Source: Alphaproteobacteria bacterium (GTDB taxonomy: Bacteria; Pseudomonadota; Alphaproteobacteria; RF32; CAG-239). From it: a DNA stretch of 64,000 bases. Shown here piece after piece: positions 32,083 to 57,608 of this stretch (position 1 is its first letter; the number at the start of each line of letters is the position of its first letter). Under the pieces are notes generated by a model. That model did not search any database. It saw only the letters and a list, made by a program, of their open reading frames with translations, and was not told the DNA's origin. Both the position numbers and the translations under genes were made by a program. Location: positions 14,869 to 78,868 of the forward strand of contig JAFUSH010000052.1 of assembly GCA_017471705.1 (NCBI GenBank). The letters run 5' to 3'.

Positions 32083-34764
32083 ATGACTATTCCTGCAAGT
32101 ATGCCGGCAAAGGCCACCTATCTGGGTGATGGGGTAACGGTTAATTTTCCGGTGCCATTTATATATTTTGAAAATACCGACGGAACAAAGCAAATAAAAG
32201 TTATTCTTGCCGATGAAAATGGTGAAAATGAAGTTGTGCAGGTAGAAAATACCGACTTCACAATCACCGACGCCGGCCAAAGTAACGGAACATTAACGAT
32301 GTTAAGCGCGCCGCCGGAAGACTATATTTTAACAATCGCTTATGATATACCGGTTGAACAACTCGTTGATTGGGAGGAGTTCGGTCGCTTACCAAGCGAA
32401 AGTATAGAGGCTGCGGTTGATAAAATAACGGCAATTATAAAACAAATTTATGAAATATTGGGGCGTTGCGTTAAGGTAACAATAAGCGGCAAACAAACCC
32501 CGGAAGAGTTGCTTGCTACAGTTTATGAAAAATTAGACAGTGCAAGTGCGATTGCGGCGCAGGCAATCACTGCTGCTGATAATGCCACAACAGCGGCTAA
32601 CAATGCAACCGCGGCGGTGGCAAGTGCAGAGCAAACGCTTGAAAATGTTACAGCTTATGTTGACGCGGCAGAGGAAGAGATAAGAGAGATTAAAGCCGCA
32701 GCTGAAAGTGAGATTGACACTAAGGTTACAACCGCAAAAGGTGAGATTGACGGTGCAATATCCAGTGCTATTGAGGACGTTGAGGCGGCAGCTATTGCGG
32801 CGGCTCAAGAAGTTATTGACAGTGCGGCTGAAAGCGCAACGGAAACAGCTAAAGCAAATCTTGACACTTATGTTGATGAAACAGTTGAGCCAAGTTTGCA
32901 GTCGTTTGTTGACGCGGCGCAGGCACAAGCCGGTAGTGCGTCATCTTCTGCCTCGTCTGCGGCACAAACTTTAAGCACTATTCAAACAACAGCCGCGCAG
33001 TTTGATACGAATTATACAACAAAACTTTCGGCATTTAATCAGAACGCAACGGATAAGACAACAGCTTTTAACAGCAATGCGTCTGACAAAACAACGGCGT
33101 TTAATGATAATGCGGCGGCTAAACAAGCTCTTATTGACACAAGTGCAACCGCGGCACAAAACGCGGCAAGTGCGGCGGCAACAAGTGAAACAAACAGCGC
33201 AAATTCAGAAGAAAATGCGTATAAATCGGAATTGAAAGCGGCGGCTTATGCTGAACGCGTTAGAAGTGAGGGAATCCCTATGAGCATTATTGAAAACAAA
33301 AAAATTGAAATATCCGGCAATACGGTAAAACTTTACTGGCGCGATCCGCGTGACACGATTATTGACGGCTTTGTCTTATCGTCTTGGAAAAGCACAACGA
33401 TTGTGAAAAAACAAGGTAGTGAGCCGGAAGATATTGACGACGGCGATATTGTCGCAATCGTGACAACGCGCAATCAATACGCAAATACACCGCTTGAAGA
33501 TACACAAGCAAACGCAGAGCAATGGCATTACCGTGCATTTCCTTTATCGGTTAATGGCGTTTATTCGCTTGATAAGCGCAACATTTTCGGCACGGTGCTA
33601 TATGGGTATAGGATAAACAATGTTGATGGTGTGCCGTCATCTAAAGTTGAATATTTGCCATATTGCGATAACTACTTTTATGATCCGTGTGTTATGGATT
33701 TTCTCGGTGATAAATTTAACTGGGGTGACTGGGAAAAAGCCTTTTTTATCCCTAAACCTTGCTTGTTATCAACCGCCGGAACGGTTACATATTACCTTTC
33801 AAAGGATAACTTTAACTATCGTGAGGACGGCGTTACGGCAAGTGATGTGTCCAATTCAGGCGTAAATGGTAATTTTATGTGTGAGTTTCCGTCTATCTTT
33901 GTTAAGGTATGGGAAGAAAAGAACTATATCAACGTGCTTGTATCAAACAAAAAACTTGATGACGATTTTGAATGTTGGGCAACCAAAAAATCTGACGGCA
34001 CTTATGCTGATAACTTTTATTTACCGATGTTTGAGGGAACAAGTATCAATAATGTTATGCGCTCTATTGCCACAAACGGCAAACCTACAGGAAGCTTAAA
34101 CGCAGAAACAGAGGCGACACACGCAACCGCAAACGGCACCGGTTGGAACACAACCACTTGGGCAGATGAAATGCTTATGATGTTGCTGTTTCCGCTGTTG
34201 TTTAAGTCAACAGACAGTCAAACGGTGTTAGGATATGGTGGCTCAAGTTCTTCAAGCGCGCTGACGGTTAATAATAATGCCGCACTTGATAAGGGTTTGA
34301 TGTATGGCACAAGCGCTGGCAGTGCCTATGGTATGACTTATTTAGGCTTACATAACTGGTGGGGGCATAGGTGGCGCCGTCCTAACGGTTTAATGAATGA
34401 TAACGGCAATTATAAATTTAAGCTGACACATAGCACAGTGGACGGCTCAACCGTTACCGGTTATAATCGGAGCGGCAACGGCTATATTTCAAGCGGTGTT
34501 AGACCGCCGGAGGCAAGCGGTAGTTATATCAATTATTATCAGCCTATCGGTAAATTTGGTATAGTGCCAAAGCTGACAAGCGGCTCAAGCACAACACACT
34601 ATTGCGATGGTATGTGGACGAATAACGGACAACTGGATCAGCTTTTTCTCGGTGGCTCTGTTAATTACGGTGCTCTCTGTGGCGTTTTCGCGTTTAATGT
34701 TTACAACCTACCTTCGAACACTTATTGGTACTTCGGCGCGTCGCTCTCTTATCATCACCTTTAA
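32083..34764 (+). CDS. tail fibre / receptor-binding protein with C-terminal DGR variable region
   Basis: N-terminus ATYLGDGVTVNFPVPFIYF is like the T7-type fibre N-domain. An Ala/Thr-rich coiled shaft follows. The C-terminal ...GGSVNYGALCGVFAFNVYNLPSNTYWYFGASL pattern resembles C-type-lectin-fold VR sequences. Occupies the gp17 slot. Confidence 0.85.
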   Translation: MTIPASMPAKATYLGDGVTVNFPVPFIYFENTDGTKQIKVILADENGENEVVQVENTDFTITDAGQSNGTLTMLSAPPEDYILTIAYDIPVEQLVDWEEFGRLPSESIEAAVDKITAIIKQIYEILGRCVKVTISGKQTPEELLATVYEKLDSASAIAAQAITAADNATTAANNATAAVASAEQTLENVTAYVDAAEEEIREIKAAAESEIDTKVTTAKGEIDGAISSAIEDVEAAAIAAAQEVIDSAAESATETAKANLDTYVDETVEPSLQSFVDAAQAQAGSASSSASSAAQTLSTIQTTAAQFDTNYTTKLSAFNQNATDKTTAFNSNASDKTTAFNDNAAAKQALIDTSATAAQNAASAAATSETNSANSEENAYKSELKAAAYAERVRSEGIPMSIIENKKIEISGNTVKLYWRDPRDTIIDGFVLSSWKSTTIVKKQGSEPEDIDDGDIVAIVTTRNQYANTPLEDTQANAEQWHYRAFPLSVNGVYSLDKRNIFGTVLYGYRINNVDGVPSSKVEYLPYCDNYFYDPCVMDFLGDKFNWGDWEKAFFIPKPCLLSTAGTVTYYLSKDNFNYREDGVTASDVSNSGVNGNFMCEFPSIFVKVWEEKNYINVLVSNKKLDDDFECWATKKSDGTYADNFYLPMFEGTSINNVMRSIATNGKPTGSLNAETEATHATANGTGWNTTTWADEMLMMLLFPLLFKSTDSQTVLGYGGSSSSSALTVNNNAALDKGLMYGTSAGSAYGMTYLGLHNWWGHRWRRPNGLMNDNGNYKFKLTHSTVDGSTVTGYNRSGNGYISSGVRPPEASGSYINYYQPIGKFGIVPKLTSGSSTTHYCDGMWTNNGQLDQLFLGGSVNYGALCGVFAFNVYNLPSNTYWYFGASLSYHHL
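33031..33129 (+). repeat. Three tandem 33-nt (11-aa) repeats within the fibre shaft
   Basis: AFNQNATDKTT / AFNSNASDKTT / AFNDNAAAKQA, with synonymous differences between units. Confidence 0.7.
34641..34746 (+). repeat. DGR variable repeat (VR)
   Basis: Ungapped 106-bp alignment to 34929-35034 with 12 mismatches. Eleven of these lie opposite TR adenines. Confidence 0.9.
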
Positions 34765-34928: not shown

Positions 34929-35034
34929 GCTTATTCTCGGTGGCAATGTTAATAACGGTGCTATCTGTGGCGTTTTCGCGTTTAATGTTAACAACCTACC
35001 TACGAACACGAATTGGAACAACGGCGCGTCGCTC
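34929..35034 (+). repeat. DGR template repeat (TR)
   Basis: Adenine-rich invariant copy. In the VR frame it reads LILGGNVNNGAICGVFAFNVNNLPTNTNWNNGASL, with many AAC/AAT codons. Lies 124 nt upstream of the RT gene. Confidence 0.9.
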
Positions 35035-35157
35035 AACCTTATAGGTAAAAGTTCTCTATAATGCCCTATCAATTCCTTGCTAGGTATGGCAAAAATAACG
35101 CTGAAAAAGGCACGGATTAGTAGGTAATCGCTGAATACCCGTGAAGCTATAAGAGAG

Positions 35158-36291
35158 ATGAAAACATACAACGGATTGTTTGAAAAAATTGTTGATGAGA
35201 AAAATATCCAAAAGGCTATATTAAAAGCCTCTCTCGGCAAACGTAAAAAGTCAAGCGTCCGGCGCACGTTATCTCACTTAACCGAAGTGGCGCACGATTT
35301 AAGCGAACAGCTTAAAAATGGAACGTGGCGACCGTTGGATATACACCAAACCACGCAAATAAATGACGGCGTGGAGCTTAAAAAGCGGTATATCGTATGT
35401 CCGAATTTTGCACGTGAGCAATGCGTCCATCACGCTATTATGAATATTTGTGAGCCATTATTCAGAAAAAAGTTTTATAAATATAGTTGCGGCAGTGTCA
35501 AAGGGCGCGGCGGCGACCAAGCAAAGAAGTATATTGCAAAAATTATTAGGAAATATCCGGCGAAAACAAAGTATGTAGCAAAACTTGATATTAAAAAATT
35601 TTTTCATAATGTTAAGCCAAGCTATGTATTTCACGAGATACGCCGAACAATCCGCGATAAAAGAGTGTTGTGGTTGTTTGCTCTTATCCTACGTGCCAAT
35701 AAGCAAATTATTGACGGCGTGACAGTTAAGGGTGGTATTCCTATCGGCTTTTATACAAGTCCTATTTTTGCAAATATTTTACTTAACGCTTTAGATCACT
35801 ACATAAAAGAGGTTTTAGGCGTTGAGTTTTATGTCCGCTATATGGACGATATTGTTATGTTTAGCCCGAATAAGCGCAAACTTAAAAAGGCGTGTCTTGC
35901 AATACAAGGTTATATTGAGGCTCGTAAAATGAAACTCAAACCGACGTGGCAGATACACCGCTTTAGGAGTGTTAATTTTATCGGGTATCAATTCAAACGC
36001 GGTGGGCAAGTCCGGCTTAGAGATAGAGTATTTTTGAAATCTATCCGGCTGATCCGGCGCGTTTCTCGCAAAACAAAGCTGACGATATATGATTGCCTCC
36101 GTGTATTAAGTTATATGGGGCGATTTAAGGCGGCGCATACATACGCCGCATTTAAGTTGCACATTTCGCCGTATGTTAATATCAGGGAATTACGCAAGCG
36201 CGTATCTCGGCACGATAAAAAGTTAAACCAGTTAGAAAAAGAAAGGAAAGCTAATGCAATACAGGAAAGCGGAAAGCCGGCAACAGCCTAA
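35158..36291 (+). CDS. DGR reverse transcriptase
   Basis: RT motifs KRYIVCPNFAREQCVHHAI, SCGSVKGRG, LDIKKFFHNV, GIPIGFYTSPIFANILLNALDHYI and YVRYMDDIVMF (YMDD at 35839-35850). Adjacent to TR/VR. Confidence 0.9.
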   Translation: MKTYNGLFEKIVDEKNIQKAILKASLGKRKKSSVRRTLSHLTEVAHDLSEQLKNGTWRPLDIHQTTQINDGVELKKRYIVCPNFAREQCVHHAIMNICEPLFRKKFYKYSCGSVKGRGGDQAKKYIAKIIRKYPAKTKYVAKLDIKKFFHNVKPSYVFHEIRRTIRDKRVLWLFALILRANKQIIDGVTVKGGIPIGFYTSPIFANILLNALDHYIKEVLGVEFYVRYMDDIVMFSPNKRKLKKACLAIQGYIEARKMKLKPTWQIHRFRSVNFIGYQFKRGGQVRLRDRVFLKSIRLIRRVSRKTKLTIYDCLRVLSYMGRFKAAHTYAAFKLHISPYVNIRELRKRVSRHDKKLNQLEKERKANAIQESGKPATA

Positions 36292-41972: not shown

Positions 41973-42174
41973 TTTTCCTTATAGTAAAATCCCATGAATA
42001 CCACCCCGCATATATCTGGCCAGCTGTTTCATCAGCGTTAATCCAAAAATCAAGTTGCGAGAAAAAATACGGCTTAAATGCTTTTGATAAACAAGAATAG
42101 TTTAGGCGTTTAACCTTAACTGTGCCGCTTTTCTTAAATCGGCCTATATTCTTAAATGTTAATTCATATATCAT
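41944..42174 (-). CDS. hypothetical protein (76 aa)
   Basis: ORF in operon. It spans the copy-1/copy-2 boundary without any discontinuity. Confidence 0.45.
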   Translation of the reverse strand: MIYELTFKNIGRFKKSGTVKVKRLNYSCLSKAFKPYFFSQLDFWINADETAGQIYAGWYSWDFTIRKNEYANIAGK

Positions 42175-42392
42175 TGCGGCCGGCCTTTCTCTTCATCACT
42201 TATACTCATCATCAAAAGTGGCAGGTTTTTGTAGATGTTGTTAAGAATGCTTTGAATTGCTTGCCGGATCTCTTTCGGTGTGGTTGCGTTAATTTCGCCG
42301 TGTTGATGAATACCGACGCCGTTTTGATTGTGTATATCTTCGGCGACAAATTCAAGTATATAGCGGCCATAAACTTTTTGTTCTTTAGACAT
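42171..42392 (-). CDS. hypothetical early protein (73 aa), second copy
   Basis: Translation identical to 41..262. Confidence 0.5.
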   Translation of the reverse strand: MSKEQKVYGRYILEFVAEDIHNQNGVGIHQHGEINATTPKEIRQAIQSILNNIYKNLPLLMMSISDEEKGRPQ

Positions 42393-42567
42393 TTTCTTTC
42401 TCCTTAATGTATTTACCGGCGCAGCGGTGGTATTGTGATCTTTTGACTTTTATGACGTCTATTTGCCATTTGGCGCAAAAGTGATACCAGTGACGCTGCG
42501 CATATTTGTTTGGCCAGTTTTCTAAATACTGGCAATATTTACAATTTTGGCACATGGTGACTTTCAT
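42385..42567 (-). CDS. small Cys-rich protein, second copy
   Basis: Identical to 255..437. Confidence 0.45.
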   Translation of the reverse strand: MKVTMCQNCKYCQYLENWPNKYAQRHWYHFCAKWQIDVIKVKRSQYHRCAGKYIKEKENV

Positions 42568-42929
42568 TTTTTAGCTTTCGTATATGGACAAGTTAAATAT
42601 GGGTGATCACTTTGGCCAAAGAGGCGGCAAACTTCCGGCCTCTTGTTATAGATTTTACATGAACAAATACCGACAGCATTGCGCTCCAAGAACGGACAAA
42701 CAAGACTTTCAACAGTAGCCTTAAGTTTATCGTCCGGCATTTGTGGGTTTATGCTTTCCATTTTGCGCAGCAGGCTCTTTGGATAAAAGACAAGCTGATC
42801 ATTAAGCGTGGCTTTTACAAAAGATACATGCAGCTCTTTAGCCTCGCGCTTGATCGCGCGGTATTCTTTAGCCGTGAACGGCACAAAGCCGCAGCAGCGG
42901 CCGCAGCGGTGGCAGATAAAATCAGACAT
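42564..42929 (-). CDS. YkgJ-family CxxCxxCC protein, second copy
   Basis: Identical to 434..799. Confidence 0.7.
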   Translation of the reverse strand: MSDFICHRCGRCCGFVPFTAKEYRAIKREAKELHVSFVKATLNDQLVFYPKSLLRKMESINPQMPDDKLKATVESLVCPFLERNAVGICSCKIYNKRPEVCRLFGQSDHPYLTCPYTKAKK

Positions 42930-43338
42930 TTAATTTCTCCTGTAATTTAGCTAAAGCCTTTTCATTATGAAACTGCTCTAATTTGGCCAATGCTTTTTCT
43001 ATACGGATTTGCGGCTCAATGTTTTTTGCTGATAATATGCTGCGCATACAATATCTAAATATTTCTATTTCTTCCTGTAGTGCTGCAGATGATACAAAAT
43101 TGAGTAGTGCTGTATCTTTGCGTTTAGCCGGTGTTTTAATGACTTCAATGGCGCGTGTTTTGCCTTTGAGCCTGCGAATATAACCGCGATCTTCAAGTGC
43201 CGTTAAAAGAGTATGAATACCGGATTTTGATTTTAAACCAAGCGCAGTGCGCATATCATCATAAGACGGTGCAATGCCGGTGCGTTGTATATACTGACGG
43301 ATATATGCAAACAGTTTGTTTTGGGTTTTAGTCATCAT
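42922..43338 (-). CDS. LexA DNA-binding-domain-only protein, second copy
   Basis: Identical to 792..1208. Confidence 0.65.
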   Translation of the reverse strand: MMTKTQNKLFAYIRQYIQRTGIAPSYDDMRTALGLKSKSGIHTLLTALEDRGYIRRLKGKTRAIEVIKTPAKRKDTALLNFVSSAALQEEIEIFRYCMRSILSAKNIEPQIRIEKALAKLEQFHNEKALAKLQEKLNV

Positions 43339-43699
43339 CGGCCTCCGTTTGCAGCACTTTTTCACAATCTCTTAGGATCTGCTTTGTTGTGTCGTCAAGT
43401 TCGTCAACACTGCTTGAGAGGTCTTGCACTTCATAGCGTAGCGTTTCAAGGCGATCAACAATGTCGTTAATATCGTGTTGCCGGCGTGAAAGTGGTAGAG
43501 GCAACAGTGCGCGCATATCAGGATCGGTGCATATTTCATAAAAAATCTCATCATCTTTTGCGTTAATTTCAGCAATACGCTGCTTGACTGTTTCCTCCGG
43601 CTGTGCAACCCATTCATAACGCTCGGCCGCTCTCGTTTGTTTGTTGCGGCGTATGGCCAAAATCATATCTTCTTTATTGCTGTTTAATATTGTCGCCAT
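43328..43699 (-). CDS. hypothetical acidic protein, second copy
   Basis: Identical to 1198..1569. Confidence 0.5.
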   Translation of the reverse strand: MATILNSNKEDMILAIRRNKQTRAAERYEWVAQPEETVKQRIAEINAKDDEIFYEICTDPDMRALLPLPLSRRQHDINDIVDRLETLRYEVQDLSSSVDELDDTTKQILRDCEKVLQTEADDD

Positions 43700-43871
43700 T
43701 TGTTTTCTCCTTTGTTTTGATTTGTCTGGCTATGCAGTAGGCGGTAAAAAGTTTAAGCACGCGCTGGCGGCTTTCCACATTACGAAACTCTTGAGAACGT
43801 GTGCCACGTGTCCAGTCTTGCAGTGCGCGGTGGGTGAGTTCTAAAATTTCAGTCTTGTTTAGTTTGGCCAT
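43674..43871 (-). CDS. hypothetical protein (65 aa), second copy
   Basis: Identical to 1544..1741. Confidence 0.45.
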   Translation of the reverse strand: MAKLNKTEILELTHRALQDWTRGTRSQEFRNVESRQRVLKLFTAYCIARQIKTKEKTNGDNIKQQ

Positions 43872-44130
43872 AATTAGTGTCCTCCATAAAATTATCACGC
43901 AGCCAATTCTGCAGATAGGTGATTTTATCTTGATCCCAAGTATTAGCGCGCAGGCGTTCAAGATCGTGAATAACTGGATTGATAGCCGCACGTGCGCTGT
44001 GTCTTTCAATTCTTGCACCATCACACGCTCCGATCCGGTGCGCATTATGCACTAAAACATGAAGAGTGCCGACGGTTGTTAAAACTGGTCGATGGTTTTT
44101 AAGCCAGTGAATGAGTTTATTTTTTATCAT
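43849..44130 (-). CDS. hypothetical protein (93 aa), second copy
   Basis: Identical to 1719..2000. Confidence 0.5.
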   Translation of the reverse strand: MIKNKLIHWLKNHRPVLTTVGTLHVLVHNAHRIGACDGARIERHSARAAINPVIHDLERLRANTWDQDKITYLQNWLRDNFMEDTNYGQTKQD

Positions 44131-44220
44131 AATGGTTCTCCATAAATTTTGTTAAGGCAAACGCGCCGATAATAATAGCCACGCCTGCAACAATAATGAT
44201 TGTGTTAATTGACAATGATT

Positions 44221-44681
44221 TTACTCCCTTGCTGTGATGTCTTTTTTGAAATAAATGATGACAGTGCCGGAATTATTACCTTTGGCCGCTCTACCGGTAG
44301 CCGGATCCACAAAGCTAACTCTGCCGGATAAAATCTCGTAAAAGAATTTTTTGTAAATGTATTGATGGAAAGCGCGGCAGTCTGTGCAATTTGAGGGCAA
44401 TACCATGACGACAATGGCACAATCGCCGTTGATGACTTCATCATAAGCTTTGGCGATAAAAGCGGCTTTTTGGCTGAATGGTGGATTACAAAAGACACGT
44501 TCCCCCCCCCCCATGAGGTTTGCAGGGCGTTAATACCCTGATCAAAATACAAGCCGCGTGGTGCTTTGCAGTTGGCGGTGGTGCAAGCAGCGTCAAGTGT
44601 GAAATTAAAAACACGATCAAGCTGCCGATAAAGAAAATCCGGTGTTTCAAAGCCGTCGTTACCTTTAACATTCATCTTCAT
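44221..44681 (-). pseudogene. Dam-family N6-adenine methyltransferase with poly-G(11) tract (OFF state, different wrong frame)
   Basis: C run 44502-44512 has 11 residues. The N-terminal frame continues as ...SWGGGNVSFVIHH... (158-aa ORF). The catalytic half GGGERVFCNPPFS lies in another frame. Confidence 0.8.
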
Positions 44682-44857
44682 TTTTTCTGTCCTTTAATGG
44701 GTTTAAGATCCTTTAAGAGTTCACGTGCAGCGATTTTTACGCGCGCAAGCTCGCTAAAAGGGTTGCTATAGCTTTCAGTGGCCAGATCTGCAACACGCTC
44801 GATAACTTTCGGATCAACAGCAATTTTGCGTTTGAATGGGTTAAGCTCTAGTTTCAT
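44678..44857 (-). CDS. hypothetical protein (59 aa), second copy
   Basis: Identical to 2547..2726. Confidence 0.45.
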   Translation of the reverse strand: MKLELNPFKRKIAVDPKVIERVADLATESYSNPFSELARVKIAARELLKDLKPIKGQKK

Positions 44858-44859
44858 AC

Positions 44860-45306
44860 TTAATCCTTTCCGGTGCTGCCAAACCCTCGCGTGCCGCGCT
44901 CGGTGGGTGTGAGTTCTTTGGCTGTGACGACTATCGGTTTGAAAATCGGGCAAACAACAAGCTGCGCAATGCGCTCGTTCGGCTCGATGGTTACCGGTGA
45001 GCTACTAAAATTAAACAGTGTGATTTGAATTTCACCACGATAAGAGGCGTCTATTGTGCCGAATTGGGCAACAATACCCTTAACAGTGTGGCCGGAGCGT
45101 GGTCTGACTTGCAGCTCATATTCAAGCGGAGCAAGCCGCTGCGCTGTGTCGATTTCAACAGCAATGCCGGTGCCGACAGTTGCGCGGCCATGCGGATCTA
45201 TAACAAGAGGATCTTTGATTGCAGCACGCAGATCGTAGCCGCTGTCGCCGGCGCGTGTGTGCAGTTCTTCTGTTTCAGGGAATAGATATTTAACTTTAAG
45301 CTGCAT
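44860..45306 (-). CDS. dut: dUTPase, second copy
   Basis: Identical to 2729..3175. Confidence 0.9.
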   Translation of the reverse strand: MQLKVKYLFPETEELHTRAGDSGYDLRAAIKDPLVIDPHGRATVGTGIAVEIDTAQRLAPLEYELQVRPRSGHTVKGIVAQFGTIDASYRGEIQITLFNFSSSPVTIEPNERIAQLVVCPIFKPIVVTAKELTPTERGTRGFGSTGKD

Positions 45307-45580
45307 TTTCTTTCTCCATAATTTTCATAAGTTGATGATAAGACGGCACTGGTGAAAGCACGGTGAGCGTGTTGAGGTTGGTGCCGATAAATACGCCGTC
45401 ACCGGTGAATTTCGGTTGCGGTTTAGGTAACCCTGCGGCCTCACGTTGTTTGATTTCTGCGGCGGTCGGATATGTCCATTTACAGATATGGTAAGCGCCA
45501 CAATAAATGTGATACCACCCTGCTTTCAATTCGCCTGCGTGATAGGCCTTTGTGAGTTCGTTGCTATCAGGATTTTGCAT
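45296..45580 (-). CDS. hypothetical protein (94 aa), second copy
   Basis: Identical to 3165..3449. Confidence 0.5.
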   Translation of the reverse strand: MQNPDSNELTKAYHAGELKAGWYHIYCGAYHICKWTYPTAAEIKQREAAGLPKPQPKFTGDGVFIGTNLNTLTVLSPVPSYHQLMKIMEKENAA

Positions 45581-45809
45581 GAACAGCCTCCAGTCTGGCA
45601 GCAAGCCATTTAATAAGATCTTCTTTGTTATAAACAACTTTAGAGCCTATTTTGTGGCTATTTGGCACGCCGCACCCACGATAATCATAGGTTGCCATTG
45701 TTTTTGGAGTATATAAGCCGCCGGTATATTTAGCTATATCAGCGCGTGCAATAATTTCCGGCCAAGCAGCGCGGAAGTTAGCACAAATTTCTGCAATTTT
45801 TTTATCCAT
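45567..45809 (-). CDS. excisionase/AlpA-like HTH protein, second copy
   Basis: Identical to 3436..3678. Confidence 0.45.
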   Translation of the reverse strand: MDKKIAEICANFRAAWPEIIARADIAKYTGGLYTPKTMATYDYRGCGVPNSHKIGSKVVYNKEDLIKWLAARLEAVHAKS

Positions 45810-45826
45810 TTGCTTTTATCCTTTCT

Positions 45827-46087
45827 TTATGAATGTGATGGAAGTTGAATGAAATATTTAACATCAAAAGAATTGCCATAATTGGCATAATAGACGTGGT
45901 CTATAGCCTGCCATTTATCGCCAAGCCATAAAGCTTGCTCTACACGGTAACGTGGTGTATTTTCGTTAAAACCATGCTTATTGATGTAATAAGGGTTAGG
46001 AATAAGCACCACATAATCAGCTTTTTGTGCTGCGGCGGTGTTTTCCGGTTTGTATTTTGGGTATGGTAGCCAATTATTCATAATCAA
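45827..46087 (-). CDS. hypothetical protein (86 aa), second copy
   Basis: Identical to 3696..3956. Confidence 0.5.
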   Translation of the reverse strand: MIMNNWLPYPKYKPENTAAAQKADYVVLIPNPYYINKHGFNENTPRYRVEQALWLGDKWQAIDHVYYANYGNSFDVKYFIQLPSHS

Positions 46088-46403
46088 CTACCTCACCCAT
46101 TTGAGCGCGTAGCTCGTTAATCTCTTGATCTAAAATTGCCGTGTTAGCATGAATTTGTTCAAGCAACGCCTCGCAGCGGTCAAAAGATTGATTATATTCA
46201 TAGATATTGTAAAAAGTGAAAGCGGCGGCAAAAATGCCGATAACAAAACAAACCGCCGTGATAAAGCATTGTAAAATACCTTTTGCTGCGCGTCTTTCTC
46301 TTTCTTTATCTGCGATCAAACGCAACCGCTCAAAATGATCTATTGTCATTTGACCTTTTGGCGATGGTGAACAATCTTTATATTTGTTAAGTAAATCGGT
46401 CAT
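46074..46403 (-). CDS. membrane-anchored coiled-coil protein, second copy
   Basis: Identical to 3943..4272. Confidence 0.5.
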   Translation of the reverse strand: MTDLLNKYKDCSPSPKGQMTIDHFERLRLIADKERERRAAKGILQCFITAVCFVIGIFAAAFTFYNIYEYNQSFDRCEALLEQIHANTAILDQEINELRAQMGEVVDYE

Positions 46404-46406
46404 AGT

Positions 46407-46694
46407 TTAAGCCTCCAAAGAGTAGTTAAGACGGATATGATTGACACCATAAGTGTCGGTAAAAGTTGAAAATGTGAGATTGTATTTTTGAACAAGTGAG
46501 GCAAAGGCCGGTGTGTCAATTACTCTGGCTTTGATTTCTTCCGGTTTCCAGTTGTCGCAGTTGAGTGTAGCAGTGTTGTTCTTTATTTGCCGCTCTGTCA
46601 TCATTGCCTTTGGTGTTGCATAATAACCACCGGCCGTGCGAATGCCTTTTGCAAGCTTTTGCAGATCTTTTTTAAGTTGGGTTGTATTAAGCAT
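46407..46694 (-). CDS. hypothetical protein (95 aa), second copy
   Basis: Identical to 4276..4563. Confidence 0.55.
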   Translation of the reverse strand: MLNTTQLKKDLQKLAKGIRTAGGYYATPKAMMTERQIKNNTATLNCDNWKPEEIKARVIDTPAFASLVQKYNLTFSTFTDTYGVNHIRLNYSLEA

Positions 46695-46875
46695 TTATTT
46701 TCTCCTTAAATTTAGATTTAACACGATTTAAGGATAAAATATGCCAATTTGGCACAAATGTCAATATAAAAATATGCCAATTAAGCATATTTTTATTCAC
46801 AACAAGAGAAAAGCCTGAAAAATAAAGGCTTTCAGGCTTGTGAAAAAATTTAGATTTACTTTAATTTAACGTGAT

Positions 46876-47235
46876 TTACTTTGCTATATAAGGTCTATTC
46901 ATGGCTACATAAATTATAAATATCGGTATATTAACGTAAAAAAATGCAGATGTCGGTATATACCAAAATAAATATATACCGGCGCTGATCATATATATAT
47001 AATAAACCAAAAAGCCTCCCTCCGGCGCTGAATATAGTGTAATATAATGCCGGCCATACTTTCCGGGGGCAATTAAACCTATGTGTAAAAAGAAGTATAT
47101 GCCGATAATGTATCTGGCAAAACTTTTCATATTGCTGTCGTATGCGCCGCCTGAATGTTCCGGCAGTATATAATATGCAATAATAAGCGCAAATAAAAAC
47201 AAGATCTTTGCTATGTTATACCAAGATATTTTCAT
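46876..47235 (-). CDS. polytopic membrane protein, second copy
   Basis: Identical to 4745..5104. Confidence 0.6.
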   Translation of the reverse strand: MKISWYNIAKILFLFALIIAYYILPEHSGGAYDSNMKSFARYIIGIYFFLHIGLIAPGKYGRHYITLYSAPEGGFLVYYIYMISAGIYLFWYIPTSAFFYVNIPIFIIYVAMNRPYIAK

Positions 47236-47238
47236 GCA

Positions 47239-47595
47239 CTATCTTTCATTTGATTTTTGCGGTGGCGTGAGCGGTTGGCCAGAATGTTCAGAACTGTCTG
47301 TTTGTGTTGATATATTCTGATTATTTCCGCTTTGCGGTGTGGTTGTTTTACGGATCATGCGTAAAATTTCGCGCTCTTCCGGTGTAATTTCTTCCGGCTG
47401 CCATTCTTTTGGTAGTAGCTCGTATGGCTTGACATCAAGCGCAGCGGCGATTGCCGGTATATACTCCATATCAAGGCCGCGCTCCCCTTTTTCTATGCGG
47501 CCAAGATTTGTATAAGACATACCGATTTTCTCCGCAAGCTGCTGCTGCGTTAATTTTCGCGCTTGTCTTAATTCTTTTATTCGGTTTGTCTGCAT
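47239..47595 (-). CDS. CI-like repressor, second copy
   Basis: Identical to 5108..5464. Confidence 0.8.
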   Translation of the reverse strand: MQTNRIKELRQARKLTQQQLAEKIGMSYTNLGRIEKGERGLDMEYIPAIAAALDVKPYELLPKEWQPEEITPEEREILRMIRKTTTPQSGNNQNISTQTDSSEHSGQPLTPPQKSNER

Positions 47596-47751
47596 TTTAA
47601 ATCTCCTTATCTGGCATAATTATATGCCAAAAAGGATTATTTTTCAAGAGGTTTAAATAATAAAAATAAAAAATGTGTCAAAAAAGCATATTTTAATATT
47701 GACACATTGTGCCAATTTGGCATATAAGGGTTTTCAGGAGGTAAAACCGCA

Positions 47752-47979
47752 ATGATAAAACTTCAAGAATACTTAGACAATAATAAAAAGACGGTAGCCG
47801 ATCTGGCTCGCGCAATCAATGTGCCGCATTGTGTGGCTTTGCGGTGGGCAAACGGTGCGCGCATACCGTCAAGAGAGAATATGCAAAAAATCTTTGCATA
47901 CACGGACGGCCAAGTTGAGCCGAACGATTTTTATAATATTAACACAGAAGAAGAAAAGGAGCTTAACAGTGTCAACTGA
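47752..47979 (+). CDS. Cro-like regulator, second copy
   Basis: Identical to 5621..5848. Confidence 0.7.
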   Translation: MIKLQEYLDNNKKTVADLARAINVPHCVALRWANGARIPSRENMQKIFAYTDGQVEPNDFYNINTEEEKELNSVN

Positions 47980-48256
47980 TAACATTATCAAATACACGCC
48001 GGAAGATGTTCAGCGCATTATGGCCGAACGCGTTAGGGTTAATTACAGATCTGCAACGTTTAAGGCCGGTATGATTGCCGAATATTGCTTTGAATATCCG
48101 AACGGCAAAATCCACGCCGATGTTGTGTGTGCTTTTCCGGTTGATCCGGCAAACGCAGATTATGACAACGGCGTGATTGTTTGTAACAAAAAGATTGAGG
48201 CGCAAATTTGGCCTTTAATCGGACAATATTCACTTATTACAGGAGAAAAATTGTGA
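47969..48256 (+). CDS. hypothetical protein (95 aa), second copy
   Basis: Identical to 5838..6125. Confidence 0.5.
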   Translation: MSTDNIIKYTPEDVQRIMAERVRVNYRSATFKAGMIAEYCFEYPNGKIHADVVCAFPVDPANADYDNGVIVCNKKIEAQIWPLIGQYSLITGEKL

Positions 48257-48636
48257 GTAACGATATTAAAGATTTCAGCCGAATGATCGGCGAATTAGAG
48301 GACGGCCAATTCAATGCCGACTGCTCGCAGCAGTTTGAAAAGGCATTGCAGGCCGTTAAAGAACGTTGTGAGATTGACGGTGCAAAGTCGGCCACGGCCA
48401 CAATAGCCGTCAATTTGAAAATCAGTTTTGTGAGCGGTAATATTGAGGTGAACGCCGATGTTTCAAGCAAGCTGCCGGCTAAACCACGCAACCGCTCAAT
48501 CTTCTGGCTTTCAGAGGACGGCAAAGGGATTTGCCGCGAAAATCCTAAACAGCCGCGGTTGCCGTTTGATGTTATTGCCGGCAAGCGTGAAGTAGTCAAC
48601 TATGATAACGAAAGGAAAGATATACATGGAGAATAA
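48253..48636 (+). CDS. hypothetical protein (127 aa), second copy
   Basis: Identical to 6122..6505. Confidence 0.5.
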   Translation: MSNDIKDFSRMIGELEDGQFNADCSQQFEKALQAVKERCEIDGAKSATATIAVNLKISFVSGNIEVNADVSSKLPAKPRNRSIFWLSEDGKGICRENPKQPRLPFDVIAGKREVVNYDNERKDIHGE

Positions 48637-49513
48637 TGAAAACACCGTTGTTGCGGTTAAGGATATTGTTGAAAAATATTTTGATCCGCGTGTTGTGCCG
48701 GTTGAGGGCACTAAAGGCTTGCTTATTGCACCGGGTGGCATGAGTGTTGCTCATGTTAAGCGGTTTATTGATGATGAACGCACTACACCGGAAACATTAA
48801 AAGGCAGCACAACATTGCATAATTGCCAGAGCTTTATTGACTTTGTTAATCGCTACAAAGATGATACTTCGGCTATTTTTTATAATCAAGATAAGCAAAA
48901 AGTTACCTGCATATTTGATTGTGCGACAAAAAATAATACAAGTTTTGAGCAGCACAAAGCTGATTATGCTTTCCCTTTCAGTGATGAGCTGAAAGAATGG
49001 AAAGAGCATAACGGTGATGTTATGACACAAATTGACTTTGCTTTTTTCATTGAAAAAAATGTTTTAGATTTGGCCGATCCGGACAAGACGGCTGAAAGTG
49101 AGGCCTTAAAAGAGATTAGACTGCGCATTGGTGGCCATTTTGCTGCCGTTAGCAAAATGGTGGAACTCTCCAGAGGCATTTCAATCCATAGTGATGAACG
49201 CGCTACGGTTAAATATGATCCGAATACCGGTGAAAGCACTGTTGATTTTTCAAGTGAGCATACCGACGCTACCGGTGAAAAGGTGAAAGTGCCGAATATG
49301 TTTTTGATCGTGATCCCTATCCTTAAAGGTGGTAAATCATATCAGCTGCCATGTCGGCTGCGCCACCGCTTAAAGAATGGGCAGATTATATGGTGGTATG
49401 AAGTTATTGATCTTGATAAAGCCATCGCTGCTGCGATTGACGAAGAATTGAACAAGATTAAAGAAGATATTGCTTTGCCGGTGTTCTATGGAGATTTGCC
49501 GTCGGGCAGATAG
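48626..49513 (+). CDS. DUF2303/YfdQ-family protein, second copy
   Basis: Identical to 6495..7382. Confidence 0.5.
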   Translation: MENNENTVVAVKDIVEKYFDPRVVPVEGTKGLLIAPGGMSVAHVKRFIDDERTTPETLKGSTTLHNCQSFIDFVNRYKDDTSAIFYNQDKQKVTCIFDCATKNNTSFEQHKADYAFPFSDELKEWKEHNGDVMTQIDFAFFIEKNVLDLADPDKTAESEALKEIRLRIGGHFAAVSKMVELSRGISIHSDERATVKYDPNTGESTVDFSSEHTDATGEKVKVPNMFLIVIPILKGGKSYQLPCRLRHRLKNGQIIWWYEVIDLDKAIAAAIDEELNKIKEDIALPVFYGDLPSGR

Positions 49514-49607
49514 TATGATTAAAGGCGGTGGTGTTTTACCACCGCCTGCACTGGTATTATTACGATATTACAATATAAGAGCTTAATTTATCAAAGGGTT
49601 AAAAATA

Positions 49608-49892
49608 ATGGTTGAAGAAACAGAAAAGAAAAAAGGTTGGGTTGTGCCGGTCGCCGCCGTTGAGGCTTTGCGATTAGAGGACGCAGAACTGTTTAAGGAG
49701 GCATTTTTGGCCATGCATGACTACAATATGAACGGTGATGTTGATGTGACGACTATGACGCCCGCCGCACGCGTGTTGTTCAGTTTGTTTAAGGAAACGA
49801 TTGACAGTAATGTGCGCCGCTATGAGGCTATAAAAAAACGCAATCAGGAAACAGCCAAGAGCCGAAAACCGCGCAAGAAAAGAGGAGAATAA
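49608..49892 (+). CDS. hypothetical basic-tailed protein, second copy
   Basis: Identical to 7477..7761. Confidence 0.5.
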   Translation: MVEETEKKKGWVVPVAAVEALRLEDAELFKEAFLAMHDYNMNGDVDVTTMTPAARVLFSLFKETIDSNVRRYEAIKKRNQETAKSRKPRKKRGE

Positions 49893-50476
49893 AAATTTTT
49901 ACCAAAAATTACCAGTGGTAAAAAAACACGCAAAATTTTACCAAAAATTACCAGTGGTGACGAAAAACAAATAAAAGCAGCCAAAACCGGCCGCAAACGC
50001 AGTAAAATGATTTTTAGTTAAAAATTTGGTAGCAGTTGGTGAGGTTTGGTGAAAAAAAGAAAAGAAAAAAGAAGCAAAAAAGAAAATAAATAAAAAAACT
50101 TGGTTGTAGGTTAAAAGGTTATTGGTTTTATGGTTAAAGGTTGAAATTATGGATAACAGGGAAAAGGTTAAGAGGGTTAAAGGGAGAAAGGAAAAGGTTG
50201 CAAAACTTGTGGATAAATCCACGCGTTTTGTGGATAAATGCTTGTCACATAAACGCGCCTTTGCGGACAAGCCTGCCGGCTTACCCTTGCAAAGACTGCG
50301 TTATACAAGCATTTTAGAGATGATTGCAGAAAAATCTGCAATCATTGGTGCGCAAGTTGAAACTTGCTTATTGCGCCTATCGGCGCAGGCTCGGCAAGGG
50401 AAAGGAGCGCGTTTTTGGCTTTGTGCAGCAATTTCTGTCTATTTTTTAGTTGCAAGTGTTGTATGGGAGGTTAGGA
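49893..50476. other. Origin-like non-coding region, second copy
   Basis: Same as 7762..8345. Iterons at 49897-49958. DnaA boxes at 50208-50237. Confidence 0.55.
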
Positions 50477-50866
50477 ATGTTATCAAAAATCAGAACGATT
50501 GAAGATGTTAAGTTTGAATTGACGCGCTATTTTGAAACGTTGCACGCACTGCCGGCGCCAAAATTGCCGGATTATGCAAAAAATTACCTTTGGCAGCTTT
50601 TATTGGTTGAGCCGAATGATGATGATAAAGAGGCCGCCGGCCGCCGCTTTGAGCCTACAACGGCAGATATTGCTGATTGTTGGTATATGGACGCAAATTT
50701 TATCCCACTTCTTACAAAATTTGAATACAATTTGCTACATGATCGGCTGCGTGATAAGCCGCTGCCGTGGAAATTGATTGAACATAAAACAAAATATTCG
50801 CGGCAATGGCTTAAAATCTATATGGATAAGGCCTTGCAACGCCTTTTTGTCCACATGAAAAGTTAA
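50477..50866 (+). CDS. putative late-gene regulator, second copy
   Basis: Identical to 8346..8735. Confidence 0.45.
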   Translation: MLSKIRTIEDVKFELTRYFETLHALPAPKLPDYAKNYLWQLLLVEPNDDDKEAAGRRFEPTTADIADCWYMDANFIPLLTKFEYNLLHDRLRDKPLPWKLIEHKTKYSRQWLKIYMDKALQRLFVHMKS

Positions 50867-50943
50867 TTTTTAGACACAAAATGAGTTATTAAAAGATATA
50901 AAATAAACAAATAATATGATAAATCAAGCACTTATGATAATAA

Positions 50944-51165
50944 TTTACATCACTTTACAAACACTTTACATCAATTTACAAAAAATGACTTTACAAAAAG
51001 GCGTAAATCTAAATATAAAAAATGTAGGATAGGGTTTTTACACTCTATTCGGAGGCCACTCAATTTTTGAGCGGCCTTTTTGTTTGGTGTAACACTGAAC
51101 AATGACCCTGCGATGGGTTAAGCTCCAAAGGCTATGCGCTCTCAACCGGCGCATAGCTTTCTTGT
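50944..51165 (+). promoter_or_regulatory. TTTACA array, candidate late promoter and tandem terminators, second copy
   Basis: Same as 8813..9034. Terminator stem at 51053-51077. Confidence 0.55.
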
Positions 51166-51693
51166 ATGGTGAATGAAATGGCAAAGGAAAAGAGAACAGT
51201 AAAGGCAAAAAAATCAGTTGGCCGTCCGAAAGTGAAATGGAAGAGCAAGGCAAACGCTGATAGAATTTTTGCGCTCATGCAAGATGGAAAGAGCTTACGG
51301 CAGATTTGCAGAGAGAATGGTTGGCCACATAGCACCGTGCTTGCTTGGTTGAATAGTGAGTTTTCTGACCAATACACGCAAGCGCAGGAGCGACGCGCGG
51401 ATTATTACTTTGAAGAAATACTTGAAATTGCTGACAGTTGTCCGGCTGATAAGGAGGAAGTGGCTGCAGCCAAGTTAAGAATTGATACACGCAAGTGGAT
51501 TATGGGGCGCATGAGCCCAAAAAAATACAGCGACAGGGTTAATGTTGATATGAGTGGCGAAACAAAGGTGACGCATGACGGAACAGTTGAATTTACCCCG
51601 ACAGATATGGCAATATCGCGTCTTGATGAAATCATTGGCCGCGTTGTCGGGACAGGAAAAGATACAAGCATGGAGGACACTAGCAAAGAATGA
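51166..51693 (+). CDS. terS: terminase small subunit, second copy
   Basis: Identical to 9035..9562. Confidence 0.8.
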   Translation: MVNEMAKEKRTVKAKKSVGRPKVKWKSKANADRIFALMQDGKSLRQICRENGWPHSTVLAWLNSEFSDQYTQAQERRADYYFEEILEIADSCPADKEEVAAAKLRIDTRKWIMGRMSPKKYSDRVNVDMSGETKVTHDGTVEFTPTDMAISRLDEIIGRVVGTGKDTSMEDTSKE

Positions 51694-53077
51694 TTTGTTT
51701 TTTCTTCTGGTTTATGTGCTTGGCGTTAGCTTTGCAAATAATCAGTGGGTGCTTGACCGCTGCCGTGAATACCAAGAAGAGCCATACGGCTATTTGGATC
51801 TATGGGCGCGCGGCCATTTTAAGAGCACAATTATTACATACGCACATACGATCTTTGAAATTTTGAACGATCCGGAGATCACAATCGGAATTTTCAGCCA
51901 TAAGCTGCCGATTGCCAGAGCTTTTGTGATCCAGATAAAAAACACGTTGGAAAGCAACGAGTTATTAAAGCTCTTGTTTCCCGATATTTTATATAAAAAT
52001 CCAAAAGATTTGCGCAATGGATCGCCAAAGTGGACGGAAGAAAAAATATGCGTGAAGAGAAAATCAACACGTAAAGAGATGACGGTTGAGGCCTGCGGTG
52101 TGGTTGAGGGGCAGCCGACAGGCATGCACTTTGATCGCTTGATTTATGATGACTTGGTTACATTAGAGAGTGTTAACACGCCGGAGCAGATCCTTAAAAC
52201 AACGGCGGCGTATAAAATGAGCTTAAACTTAGGCAGCGCAACAGCAAAGCGCGCCATGATCGGCACGTTTTATGCGTTTAATGATACATATAATGTGATT
52301 ATTGATGAGGGTGGCGTTATCCCTCGGATATATCCGGCAATGACAGATCCGACGGATTTTAACACTTCTGTCTTTTTACCGCCGGAAGAGTTGAAACAAA
52401 AACGTATTGAAATGGGTGCGGCAACATTTGGCACGCAGATGTTATTGGATCCATCTATTGCAAATAACAGATATTTTCTGCCGGAATGGGTGAAATACTA
52501 TGACGGCAAAGGTTGGAACACAATGACAAGATATATTATTGTTGATCCGGCCTCAAGCAAGGAGAAACGCAGCGACTATACCGTCATGCTTGTTTTAGGA
52601 CTTGGCAAAGACGGTAATTATTATGTGATTGACGGCATACGCGATCGGCTCAATCTGACTGAACGAACAAATATTTTATTCAGTCTTGTTGAGCAATACC
52701 GGCCGAATGCGGTATGGTATGAAAGCTATGGGCAACAGGCCGATAATGAGCATATTCAGGCTGAAATGTCTGCGCGACATTTTCGGTTTGCAATTCATCG
52801 GCTTGGCGGCACTATGGCTAAAAAAACAAGAATTGAGCGCTTGCAGCCGTTATTTGAACAGGGTAAAATCTGGTTTCCGACACGTTTACCGTTTTTAACG
52901 GTTGATAATGGTTATCAAGATTTTACTAAGCTGTTTTTGGACGACGAATATTTGAAATATCCGGCTTGCAATCATGACGATATGATTGATTGTTTAGCGC
53001 GGTTGTTTGATATAAATGCGGTCTTTCCACAAAACGGCGCAGCATATCAAACAATTTTCTATAATAAGAAAGGATAG
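51575..53077 (+). CDS. terL: terminase large subunit, second copy
   Basis: Identical to 9444..10946. Confidence 0.9.
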   Translation: MTEQLNLPRQIWQYRVLMKSLAALSGQEKIQAWRTLAKNDLFFLLVYVLGVSFANNQWVLDRCREYQEEPYGYLDLWARGHFKSTIITYAHTIFEILNDPEITIGIFSHKLPIARAFVIQIKNTLESNELLKLLFPDILYKNPKDLRNGSPKWTEEKICVKRKSTRKEMTVEACGVVEGQPTGMHFDRLIYDDLVTLESVNTPEQILKTTAAYKMSLNLGSATAKRAMIGTFYAFNDTYNVIIDEGGVIPRIYPAMTDPTDFNTSVFLPPEELKQKRIEMGAATFGTQMLLDPSIANNRYFLPEWVKYYDGKGWNTMTRYIIVDPASSKEKRSDYTVMLVLGLGKDGNYYVIDGIRDRLNLTERTNILFSLVEQYRPNAVWYESYGQQADNEHIQAEMSARHFRFAIHRLGGTMAKKTRIERLQPLFEQGKIWFPTRLPFLTVDNGYQDFTKLFLDDEYLKYPACNHDDMIDCLARLFDINAVFPQNGAAYQTIFYNKKG

Positions 53078-53082
53078 ATAAA

Positions 53083-53475
53083 ATGGGATTAGGTAAAAGC
53101 TTAAAAAAAGCCGTCAAAAAAGTTACAAAGGCAGTAACAAAAGTGGTTGGTAGCCGTGTAACTGCAGGCATTGACGCAATTAAATCTGTGGCCAAAGGAG
53201 ATTTAACCGGTGTGGCTGATGCTGCTACGCGTGTGGCAAGTGGTGGAACAATATCACTAAAGGATAAAGGTTTGCTTAATGCAAATTTAGGGATTGAGCA
53301 AAATGTTGAGGCTCCTCCGATACAAACAGAGCAACCCTATGATGGTTTGCTTGCTTATGTGACTGATCAGAGAAACCGCAGAGCAAAGCGAAACCGTCAA
53401 AGCACAAACAATACAAGCGGATCTAACACGGTTGACGGTAATAAATTGTCCGGCACAACTGCATTAGGAGTGTAA
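53083..53475 (+). CDS. small basic protein (...TALGV), second copy
   Basis: Identical to 10952..11344. Confidence 0.55.
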   Translation: MGLGKSLKKAVKKVTKAVTKVVGSRVTAGIDAIKSVAKGDLTGVADAATRVASGGTISLKDKGLLNANLGIEQNVEAPPIQTEQPYDGLLAYVTDQRNRRAKRNRQSTNNTSGSNTVDGNKLSGTTALGV

Positions 53476-53479
53476 AATC

Positions 53480-53788
53480 ATGATGTTTAGAAGATTATTC
53501 AAGCGCATACGTCAAAAGGCTCTTTTAGATAAAATAAACGCAGCTAAAAAAGCTCAAACAGACGCAAAAGCAGCGGCAGAGCAAACGCAAGCGACAGCAC
53601 AAGCTGCAGCCACGGATCCGGCAACAACTCAACCGACAACACCGCCGGTGCAAACGACAGCTACGCCGGCCGCCGAAAATAATGATCTTGATTTGTATAT
53701 TAACACAATGAAAAATCGGCGCAAAAAGGGTGCACAGTTGCCAGATGTGGCCGCACTGTTAGGACAAACAGCTACATTGGGAGTTTAG
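53480..53788 (+). CDS. small basic protein (...TATLGV), second copy
   Basis: Identical to 11349..11657. Confidence 0.55.
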   Translation: MMFRRLFKRIRQKALLDKINAAKKAQTDAKAAAEQTQATAQAAATDPATTQPTTPPVQTTATPAAENNDLDLYINTMKNRRKKGAQLPDVAALLGQTATLGV

Positions 53789-53791
53789 ACA

Positions 53792-55513
53792 ATGGATAAT
53801 ATTGATGATGTGGCCACACGCATTGTCAAAGGGTTGAGTAATTTGCAGAGCAGACGTCAACCTTTAGAGAATGTTTGGCAAAAAATTATGGAAATGGTTG
53901 ATCCGGCCAATGCTTTTATTACACGTGAATATTCAGCAGAACAGATGTTTAAGGAGGATCTTTATTCAACTACTGCTTTGCGTGCAATACCAAAGTTTGT
54001 GGCCGCTTTACAATCAACCGTTACACCACCGAATGAGCAATGGCACCGGTTGATACCACCGACACGTAAGCTTAAAAAAGATCAAAAATGTATTTCTTGG
54101 CTTGAAGAATTAGCAGAGGATTTGTTTGAGCGCAGGTATAGACCGGCCGCCGGATTTAATAAGGCTATTATTAAAATTTGGTATAGTATGGCAAAAATCG
54201 GCGTCGGCTGTATGTTTATAGATGAGGCAAGTGATGGCTCCGGTGCTGAATATACCTGCGTTAATATGAAAGATTTTTATGTTAGCCTGTATGATAATGG
54301 CCAGATCAAAAAATGTTATCGTAAAATCAAAAAAAGCTTTTGGGAAGTTTGCGAAGATTTGGAAAATAAAGGAGTTGATCCGCAGTCTGTTATCCCTCAA
54401 GAGATATATAATCGCTGCATTAAAGAGCCGAATACTGAACTTAATCTTATTCATGCAGTAAAAAAACTAAGCAACAAGGAAATTAAAACTTGTCAAATTG
54501 AAATGAATAAGGTGGACGGCTCAAAGGAAATTATTAAACGCCGTTACAGATCTTACTTAGTTTTGACTGATAGCGGAAAGCCTGTTGTGTTGCATGATGG
54601 GTATTTCTTTACATGCCCTTATCAATTTGCACGTTTCAAAGAGCTTGATTTTGATATTTATTCAAACTCTCCATCTATGCAAGGCCTGCCTGATATTCAG
54701 ATGTTGCAGCGTATGCGTAAATCAATGATTGAGGCCGGTGAAAAAGCTGTTGATCCTACAATCTTGGCTAAACAAGACGCAGCAATGGGCGGTATTCAAC
54801 CAGTTGCCGGCGCGATTATTCCGGGAGGATTGGACGATCAAGGTAAAGAAAACCTGAAAGCGTTGAATGTCACCGGATCAGCCTCGCTTGGTGTTGATTT
54901 AGAAGAGCTTATCACAAAAGGAATTGAGGACTTTTATCTTGTGCCGCTATACATGATGTATTACCAAGAGGGCAAGATGACGGCTACTGAAATAAATCAG
55001 CGCGCGATGGAAAGAGCAATGCTGATGTCAATCAATGTCTTTCCGGTTGAAAATGAGTTGCTTTCGCCGATGGTGGCTAGGGAGCTTGATATTATGGAGC
55101 GTTTAGGAGTATTGCCACCGGAAATACCGCCAGAATTATCAGAGCTTTTGAATAAAGATTTACCTTATTATGCAATCCAGTATGAGGGAGAGCAGCATAA
55201 GGCGCAAGAGATCATCAAAGCTAATGGTATTATGGTGACTTTGGAGGGTGCGGCAACTTTAAGCCAGTATGAGCCGACTGTCGGTATGGCAATCAAAGGA
55301 TATGATTGCTTGGCTACACTTGGCCGCGCAAACGGTATGCCGATGGATCATTTATTGACAGCCAAAGAATATAAAAGCAAGACTGATCAATATCAACAAG
55401 AGCAGTTAGCTCAAGCACAAGCTGCCGCTGCGGCCGTTGATCCTCGTGCCGCTGAAACGGCAGGTAACACAGCCGATCGGTATGCTACACAACTTGCAAG
55501 TATGAGGTATTGA
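53792..55513 (+). CDS. portal protein, second copy
   Basis: Identical to 11661..13382. Confidence 0.8.
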   Translation: MDNIDDVATRIVKGLSNLQSRRQPLENVWQKIMEMVDPANAFITREYSAEQMFKEDLYSTTALRAIPKFVAALQSTVTPPNEQWHRLIPPTRKLKKDQKCISWLEELAEDLFERRYRPAAGFNKAIIKIWYSMAKIGVGCMFIDEASDGSGAEYTCVNMKDFYVSLYDNGQIKKCYRKIKKSFWEVCEDLENKGVDPQSVIPQEIYNRCIKEPNTELNLIHAVKKLSNKEIKTCQIEMNKVDGSKEIIKRRYRSYLVLTDSGKPVVLHDGYFFTCPYQFARFKELDFDIYSNSPSMQGLPDIQMLQRMRKSMIEAGEKAVDPTILAKQDAAMGGIQPVAGAIIPGGLDDQGKENLKALNVTGSASLGVDLEELITKGIEDFYLVPLYMMYYQEGKMTATEINQRAMERAMLMSINVFPVENELLSPMVARELDIMERLGVLPPEIPPELSELLNKDLPYYAIQYEGEQHKAQEIIKANGIMVTLEGAATLSQYEPTVGMAIKGYDCLATLGRANGMPMDHLLTAKEYKSKTDQYQQEQLAQAQAAAAAVDPRAAETAGNTADRYATQLASMRY

Positions 55514-55514
55514 C

Positions 55515-56491: not shown

Positions 56492-56558
56492 TGTTTGAAT
56501 ATAAAACATTGTTTTAACCGGAGGCGTTTGCCTCCATTTTTTATATAGGATAAAATAA

Positions 56559-57545: not shown

Positions 57546-57608
57546 GGAAATAAGCACCTCTTTAAGGGGTGCTTTGTTTTTAATCTTTTTTAAGAAAAGG
57601 AAAAAAAT

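Follow-up and report, generated by a model that had tools for sequence, protein, structure and literature searches.

Does a G tract that occurs with two lengths in one contig record slippage within a single phage molecule, or did the assembly bring together two alleles of a switching gene? The question arose from a window of 64,000 nucleotides (the whole stretch of DNA analysed, G000:C42:14869-78868, where C42 is the contig and G000 the binned genome). A small phage methyltransferase gene appears twice in this window, with 11 G in one copy and 10 in the other (hereafter G11 and G10, see Table 1). The answer that we consider probable is that a poly-G contingency locus governs this PF05869 methyltransferase and that G11 stands beside G10 in a computationally composite contig.

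Table 1. Features of the methyltransferase locus and of the diversity-generating retroelement (DGR), in window positions
Feature	Position	Strand	Remarks
Poly-G tract, G11 copy (C11 on + strand)	44502..44512	-	W-G-G loop codons; frame +2, gene predicted OFF
Poly-G tract, other contig copy (C10 on + strand, poly-G 10)	2372..2381	-	Frame +1; 64-aa truncated product; gene 2091-2550
Second copy of window 1-21869	42131..64000		One extra C in the tract is the sole difference
Predicted PF05869 Dam-family N6-adenine methyltransferase gene, split by the tract	44221..44681	-	N-terminal part 44513-44681; C-terminal part with NPPF 44221-44501
158-aa ORF actually encoded at G11	44205..44681	-	60 genuine and 98 out-of-frame residues
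97-aa ORF from an ATG overlapping the TCA-TGG codons	44221..44514	-	Without upstream Shine-Dalgarno; without N-terminal third of the fold
Upstream 59-aa ORF	44678..44857	-	Stop overlaps methyltransferase start (ATGA)
DGR variable region, 3' end of the 893-aa tail-fibre gene (32083-34764)	34641..34746	+	Copies differ here too
DGR template repeat (34929-35034) and reverse transcriptase (35158-36291)	34929..36291	+	

Both tracts named in the original prediction were present. They lie inside the same methyltransferase gene, of 150 aa when complete, and put it in different OFF frames, as had been claimed. Runs of this kind are rare in the phage: shuffles of the window gave an expectation of 0.02 for C runs of at least 10, and this tract is the only G/C run of six or more in the whole 42,130-bp phage unit. 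The proposal that it is prone to slippage was likewise upheld, lengths from G5 to G11 being found among near-identical phages.

The assignment of the gene rested on profile searches and on a structural model. Joined in frame, its two halves matched the PF05869 Dam profile with 77.7 bits (cut-off 28.1). The C-terminal 97 aa alone scored 40 bits, and the 158-aa product as encoded scored 26.2 bits, slightly below the cut-off. The region also matched phrog_111 ('DNA methyltransferase') at 7e-33. P0001, a 95%-identical relative in the ON state, obtained 63 bits with TIGR01712 (phage_N6A_met), below the equivalog cut-off of 97; it is related to that family, not an equivalog. P0001 was modelled with AlphaFold2 from 62 homologues; the model reached a pLDDT of 88 and had N6-adenine methyltransferases (CAPAM, KsgA and METTL16) as its best PDB matches. 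In this model the tract encodes a loop directly ahead of strand beta-4 and of NPPF (motif IV), the latter being located in the C-terminal half. The first 60 residues form one helix and two strands and carry the invariant D9, T13, F25, F27 and D30; D30 and other N-terminal residues were invariant among the 62 homologues, in agreement with a Rossmann-like fold that bears motif IV and an acidic AdoMet-binding residue near its N terminus. The gene is thus predicted, from profiles and model, to encode a small phage Dam-family N6-adenine DNA methyltransferase. A megablast of the region against cultured phages and an exact DNA pattern search of IMG/VR gave no match, and a PDB sequence search returned only chance hits to antibody chains.

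The true start of the methyltransferase is preceded by an AAGGA Shine-Dalgarno sequence 8 nt upstream. Given the overlap with the 59-aa ORF, translational coupling of both genes is probable, as is their membership of an early operon together with the nearby dUTPase gene (44860-45306).

Homologues indicated how the tract should be read. Across it they display SW-GG-ERVFCNPPF, and P0001 spells this part TGG GGG GGG GAG, which corresponds to G9. Joining both halves in frame requires G9 or G12. Judged from the relatives, G9 would be the ON length, and both copies in the window would be OFF. The W-to-R spacing was three residues in 54 of 59 motif-matching homologues and two or four in the other five, so that in-frame G6 and G12 may work too and are probably functional. 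In the mechanism that we propose, polymerase slippage (slipped-strand mispairing) during phage or prophage replication would add or remove Gs. G9, read as TGG GGG GGG GAR (W-G-G-E) directly before the catalytic NPPF strand, would be ON, probably together with G6 and G12. The first OFF frame (G7 and G10) would end the protein after 63-64 aa, and the second (G5, G8 and G11) would continue into a nonsense tail. The G11 copy reads MKMN...SWGGG and then, out of frame, NVSFVIHH.... Its ORF does have the 158 aa initially announced; yet these are not nonsense throughout, since about 60 residues are genuine and only about 98 are out of frame.

The tract is not the only place where the two copies disagree. 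Over their 37.9-kb overlap, differences were found at two places only, namely the tract and the DGR variable region. The second variable-region allele lies outside the window (G000:C42:7383-7467), and the two alleles are separated by 11 substitutions within 85 bp. Against the template repeat each shows 12 differences, and adenine is the template base at 23 of these 24 sites. A third variable-region allele was encountered in another sample, in which the template repeat was unchanged. The DGR is visibly active, since variable-region alleles differ and the template repeat stays constant. An exact look-up of the tail-fibre protein found nothing on record.

Assemblies of single runs and samples gave a concordant picture. 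A Logan contig from SRR12529323 (7,337 bp) was 100% identical to the G11 copy, and one from SRR12529339 (10,129 bp) was identical save for G10. A 20-kb scaffold from SAMN15829948 matched the window except at the tract and for 15 substitutions in the variable region. As these near-identical contigs come from separate samples, the phage is clonal across samples except at its two diversifying loci.

These data bear on whether the 10/11 difference is biological at all. Homopolymer miscalls or PCR stutter, treated differently by different assemblers, could give two lengths where the sample holds one true allele; a single base is concerned, and short-read platforms are prone to errors in long G runs. 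We nevertheless regard a purely technical origin as unlikely. The overlap contains 25 A/T runs of 7-8, none of which differed between the copies; the 10/11 difference is therefore not general homopolymer noise. The variable-region difference, in turn, cannot be a sequencing error, which makes the read pool genuinely mixed. Independent per-run assemblies settled on either G11 or G10, and the lengths of 5 to 11 in relatives are too widely spread for consensus error. Illumina or PCR stutter, resolved differently by the assemblers, could still account for part of the G10 versus G11 difference in this sample.

The case for a contingency locus came mainly from relatives. Loci were retrieved by peptide patterns downstream of the tract and are hence unbiased for tract state. 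Ten loci were in frame and carried ON alleles (L011, L012, L032, L034, L035, L037, L038 and L048-50), and six were frameshifted and carried OFF alleles (L022, L031, L051, L053, L054 and L056). An exact-sequence cluster look-up in public assemblies recorded products matching every length from G5 to G11 (G5, G6, G7, G8, G9, G10 and G11). By contig count, this look-up gave about 42 ON versus 57 OFF, with some double counting possible. The spelling of the tract was also conserved. GGG represents only 26 of the 545 Gly codons of the phage (4.8%), yet every relative, as far as about 55-70% identity, writes W-G-G purely in G, while flanking synonymous sites diverge. Further out (below about 55% identity) the tract is absent and other residues are found. 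Values of dN/dS were 0.03-0.26 in both gene halves, OFF-OFF pairs included, and no second lesion was found in OFF alleles. Taken at the sequence level, the tract behaves as a genuine hypermutable contingency locus and not as a chance run. OFF states would be transient, not steps of decay, because second lesions are lacking and both halves are under purifying selection.

The clone in the window is less straightforward. For its exact protein, the OFF lengths G7, G8, G10 and G11 were recorded, and no in-frame version (G9, G6 or G12) is on record. This clone might thus be drifting among OFF states. A more radical reading is that its methyltransferase is a dead gene whose tract drifts among non-functional lengths without adaptive role. 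The all-OFF record would be expected under such a reading, but we find it improbable: the sister lineage, only two residues away, is mostly G9 ON, purifying selection is strong across lineages, and OFF alleles remain otherwise intact, with the pure-G spelling retained despite the low use of GGG.

How two alleles came to lie in one contig can be deduced from its structure. C42 measures 80,052 bp, i.e. 1.9 phage units of 42,130 bp, and displayed no host DNA flanking the phage. Each end cuts a 3,523-aa gene at an arbitrary point, and neither shares sequence with another contig. Elsewhere in G000, contig ends overlap by exactly 141 nt, involving seven distinct sequences, which is the signature of a k=141 de Bruijn (MEGAHIT-type) short-read assembly. 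Such a graph is unable, alone, to emit a contig containing 38 kb twice, and with short reads no read can link sites 42 kb apart. Unit-length circles of this phage were recorded elsewhere, with 42,271 bp (unit + 141) and 42,185 bp (unit + 55).

Near-identical phage DNA was found in runs and samples labelled Xie et al. 2021. In that study, Minimus2 served to join, sample by sample, the contigs from MEGAHIT and IDBA-UD (OVERLAP=100, MINID=100; PMC8199421). Because of this near-identity and of the assembly signature, we infer that G000 probably stems from the same study. The two tract lengths would then most likely result from merging two assemblies of one circular phage genome. A MEGAHIT contig and an IDBA-UD contig, being different circular permutations of the 42,130-bp genome, would have been fused by Minimus2, each assembler having followed one branch at both polymorphic loci (DGR variable region and tract).

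The original prediction had instead proposed replication slippage within a concatemer or tandem array, that is, within one molecule. A real head-to-tail concatemer or tandem prophage has some attraction: the record does contain 1.9 units in one sequence, terminase phages of such type do form concatemers, and both differing loci change in single steps (one slippage and one DGR homing event). It is nonetheless very improbable. Besides the missing host flanks, neither another copy nor an attB was detected in G000, and the k=141 signature implies that no physical link spans the 42 kb. Rolling-circle units copy one template, and for a fresh DGR event and a fresh slippage event to hit one molecule together would be a rare coincidence. 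Separate runs each yielded one allele. Finally, a Minimus2 merge accounts for the structure, including the 861-nt terminal self-overlap of contig C20.

C20 (8,433 bp) closes through this identical overlap into a 7.57-kb circle, and three other contigs of G000 (C28, C30 and C77) self-close by exactly 141 nt into circles of 1.6-2.1 kb. These four may be small circular elements or assembly artefacts.

The G11 frame contains two further reading possibilities. The 97-aa ORF begins MGGGERVFCNPPFS, and its frame is that of the C-terminal half at G5, G8 or G11 only. No stop interrupts the alternative frame (44205-44501, minus strand) over 97 codons, and it extends beyond the normal stop. The closest relatives also have it open, but more distant tract-bearing relatives retain only 14-31 codons. 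A conserved overlapping gene in this frame was rejected on that ground, and since the frame shortens in distant relatives, its length here is probably due to chance. RNA-polymerase slippage is possible on long homopolymers. That OFF alleles leak, through transcriptional or ribosomal slippage restoring the enzyme or, as suggested originally, through an internal ATG yielding a working catalytic half, is nevertheless hardly credible: the 97-aa ORF with NPPF is present at G11 and its frame is open in the closest relatives, but the ATG has no Shine-Dalgarno and looks undesigned (TGG after A, G or T always gives a nominal start codon), and the fragment is devoid of helix 1, strands 1-2 and D9, T13, F25, F27 and D30, and therefore of the AdoMet-binding part, quite apart from the short alternative frame of the other tract-bearing relatives.

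The composition of the phage attracted attention in its own right. GTAC occurs once in the 42,130-bp phage (window 34728) versus about 55 expected. This lone site belongs to the variable region of the DGR in the present copy and was hence created by DGR mutagenesis. ATTAAT, GATATC, CAATTG and CATATG were absent from the phage unit, and TCGA occurred at 0.28 of expectation. This depletion is a strong restriction-avoidance signature. The other contigs of G000 displayed the opposite profile: they avoid CATG (0.12 of expectation), GATC (0.27) and GGCC (0.31), and do not avoid GTAC or TCGA.

The assignment of the phage to this bin may be erroneous. No attB and no integrated phage copy were detected in G000, where phage DNA outside C42 was limited to short tRNA-like matches. 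An integrated relative (L107, on an 82-kb contig) adjoins murD-mscS-asd-prfA, and the corresponding host proteins are 41-58% identical to those of G000. The phage contig may therefore have been mis-binned. The phage-host junction of this relative (L107 14900-15010, and window about 40087-40184) adjoins the phage tRNA-Thr, followed by a host tRNA remnant, which fits an attP at the phage tRNA-Thr. Within G000 itself, other G/C runs of 10-12 were noticed at C11:2954-2963, C22:29108-29118, C67:10931-10942 and C74:5033-5043. Their settings were upstream of a haemagglutinin-like two-partner-secretion protein, splitting a 287+330-aa ORF, at the 5' end of a Cys-rich 854-aa surface protein, and intergenic. 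These four runs are candidate bacterial contingency loci.

Several known systems resemble this locus in part. Liu et al. 2004 (cited in bioRxiv 10.1101/2025.10.21.683753) described a poly-G tract in the methylase gene bpm of Bordetella phage BPP-1, the archetypal DGR phage, and we observed a C8 run inside bpm at NC_005357 29922-29929. Like the phage studied here, BPP-1 is temperate and combines a tail-fibre DGR with a G homopolymer inside an adenine methyltransferase gene. Yet, the phages are unrelated, their hosts being Bordetella on the one hand and uncultured gut or rumen bacteria on the other. The bpm product (251 aa, DPPY motif) belongs to another methyltransferase family than PF05869. 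The present tract is longer than C8, and both OFF frames were seen across many natural genomes.

Hypermutable polyG tracts were also reported in Campylobacter Fletchervirus (Sorensen et al. 2021, Cell Rep 35:109214), and contingency loci in phages T2/T4 (bioRxiv 10.1101/2025.10.21.683753). These are phage homopolymers as well, with reversible frame shifts and mixed populations as bet-hedging. They occur mainly in receptor-binding or other structural genes and in defence-related genes of lytic phages, in contrast to the DNA-modification gene of a temperate phage described here.

Phasevarions of the Type III mod kind (Haemophilus, Neisseria, Helicobacter and Moraxella; for instance ModM of Moraxella catarrhalis, PMC6902483) likewise toggle methylation through repeats in an adenine methyltransferase ORF. 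Their genes are chromosomal, and the Mod proteins are large, contain target-recognition domains and regulate host genes, whereas the present enzyme is a phage orphan of 150 aa that has no restriction partner in its vicinity. Finally, Dam-type enzymes of the phage T1 kind (PF05869, TIGR01712) share the Pfam family, the small size, the NPPF motif IV and the location in the phage early region. Identity with members from cultured phages was 35% or less, the TIGR01712 score was sub-threshold, and relatives below about 55% identity displayed no poly-G tract.

As for its role, the DNA that the enzyme methylates would probably be that of the phage and, in lysogens, that of the host as well. The switch would then be a hedge, with shelter from methyl-sensitive restriction on one side and, on the other, exposure to methyl-dependent defence or to other costs that methylation entails. 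A wider scenario, which we put forward only tentatively and hold to be doubtful as a whole, is that the phage operates two simultaneous diversifiers, a tail-fibre DGR and a methylase poly-G switch hedging between hosts whose restriction attacks unmethylated DNA and others that attack methylated DNA, with GATC as target and with this clone selected to stay unmethylated. GATC occurs at 4.5 per kb in the phage versus about 0.9 in G000 and in the host flank of the lysogen (a flank of 5.5 kb, whose counts are uninformative). Its retention in the phage and scarcity in the other two would fit GATC as the protected target. The selection for an unmethylated state was suggested by the recorded lengths of the clone, all of which are OFF.

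The locus would provide a well-documented natural case of a phage homopolymer switch acting on the phage's own DNA-modification gene, with dozens of alleles in metagenomes instead of a single genome behind it. Across samples the phage genomes are otherwise clonal and differ solely at two hypermutable loci, this tract and the DGR variable region. More generally, merged short-read contigs longer than one unit can juxtapose two alleles of a population, and such a pair should not be taken for variation within one molecule.
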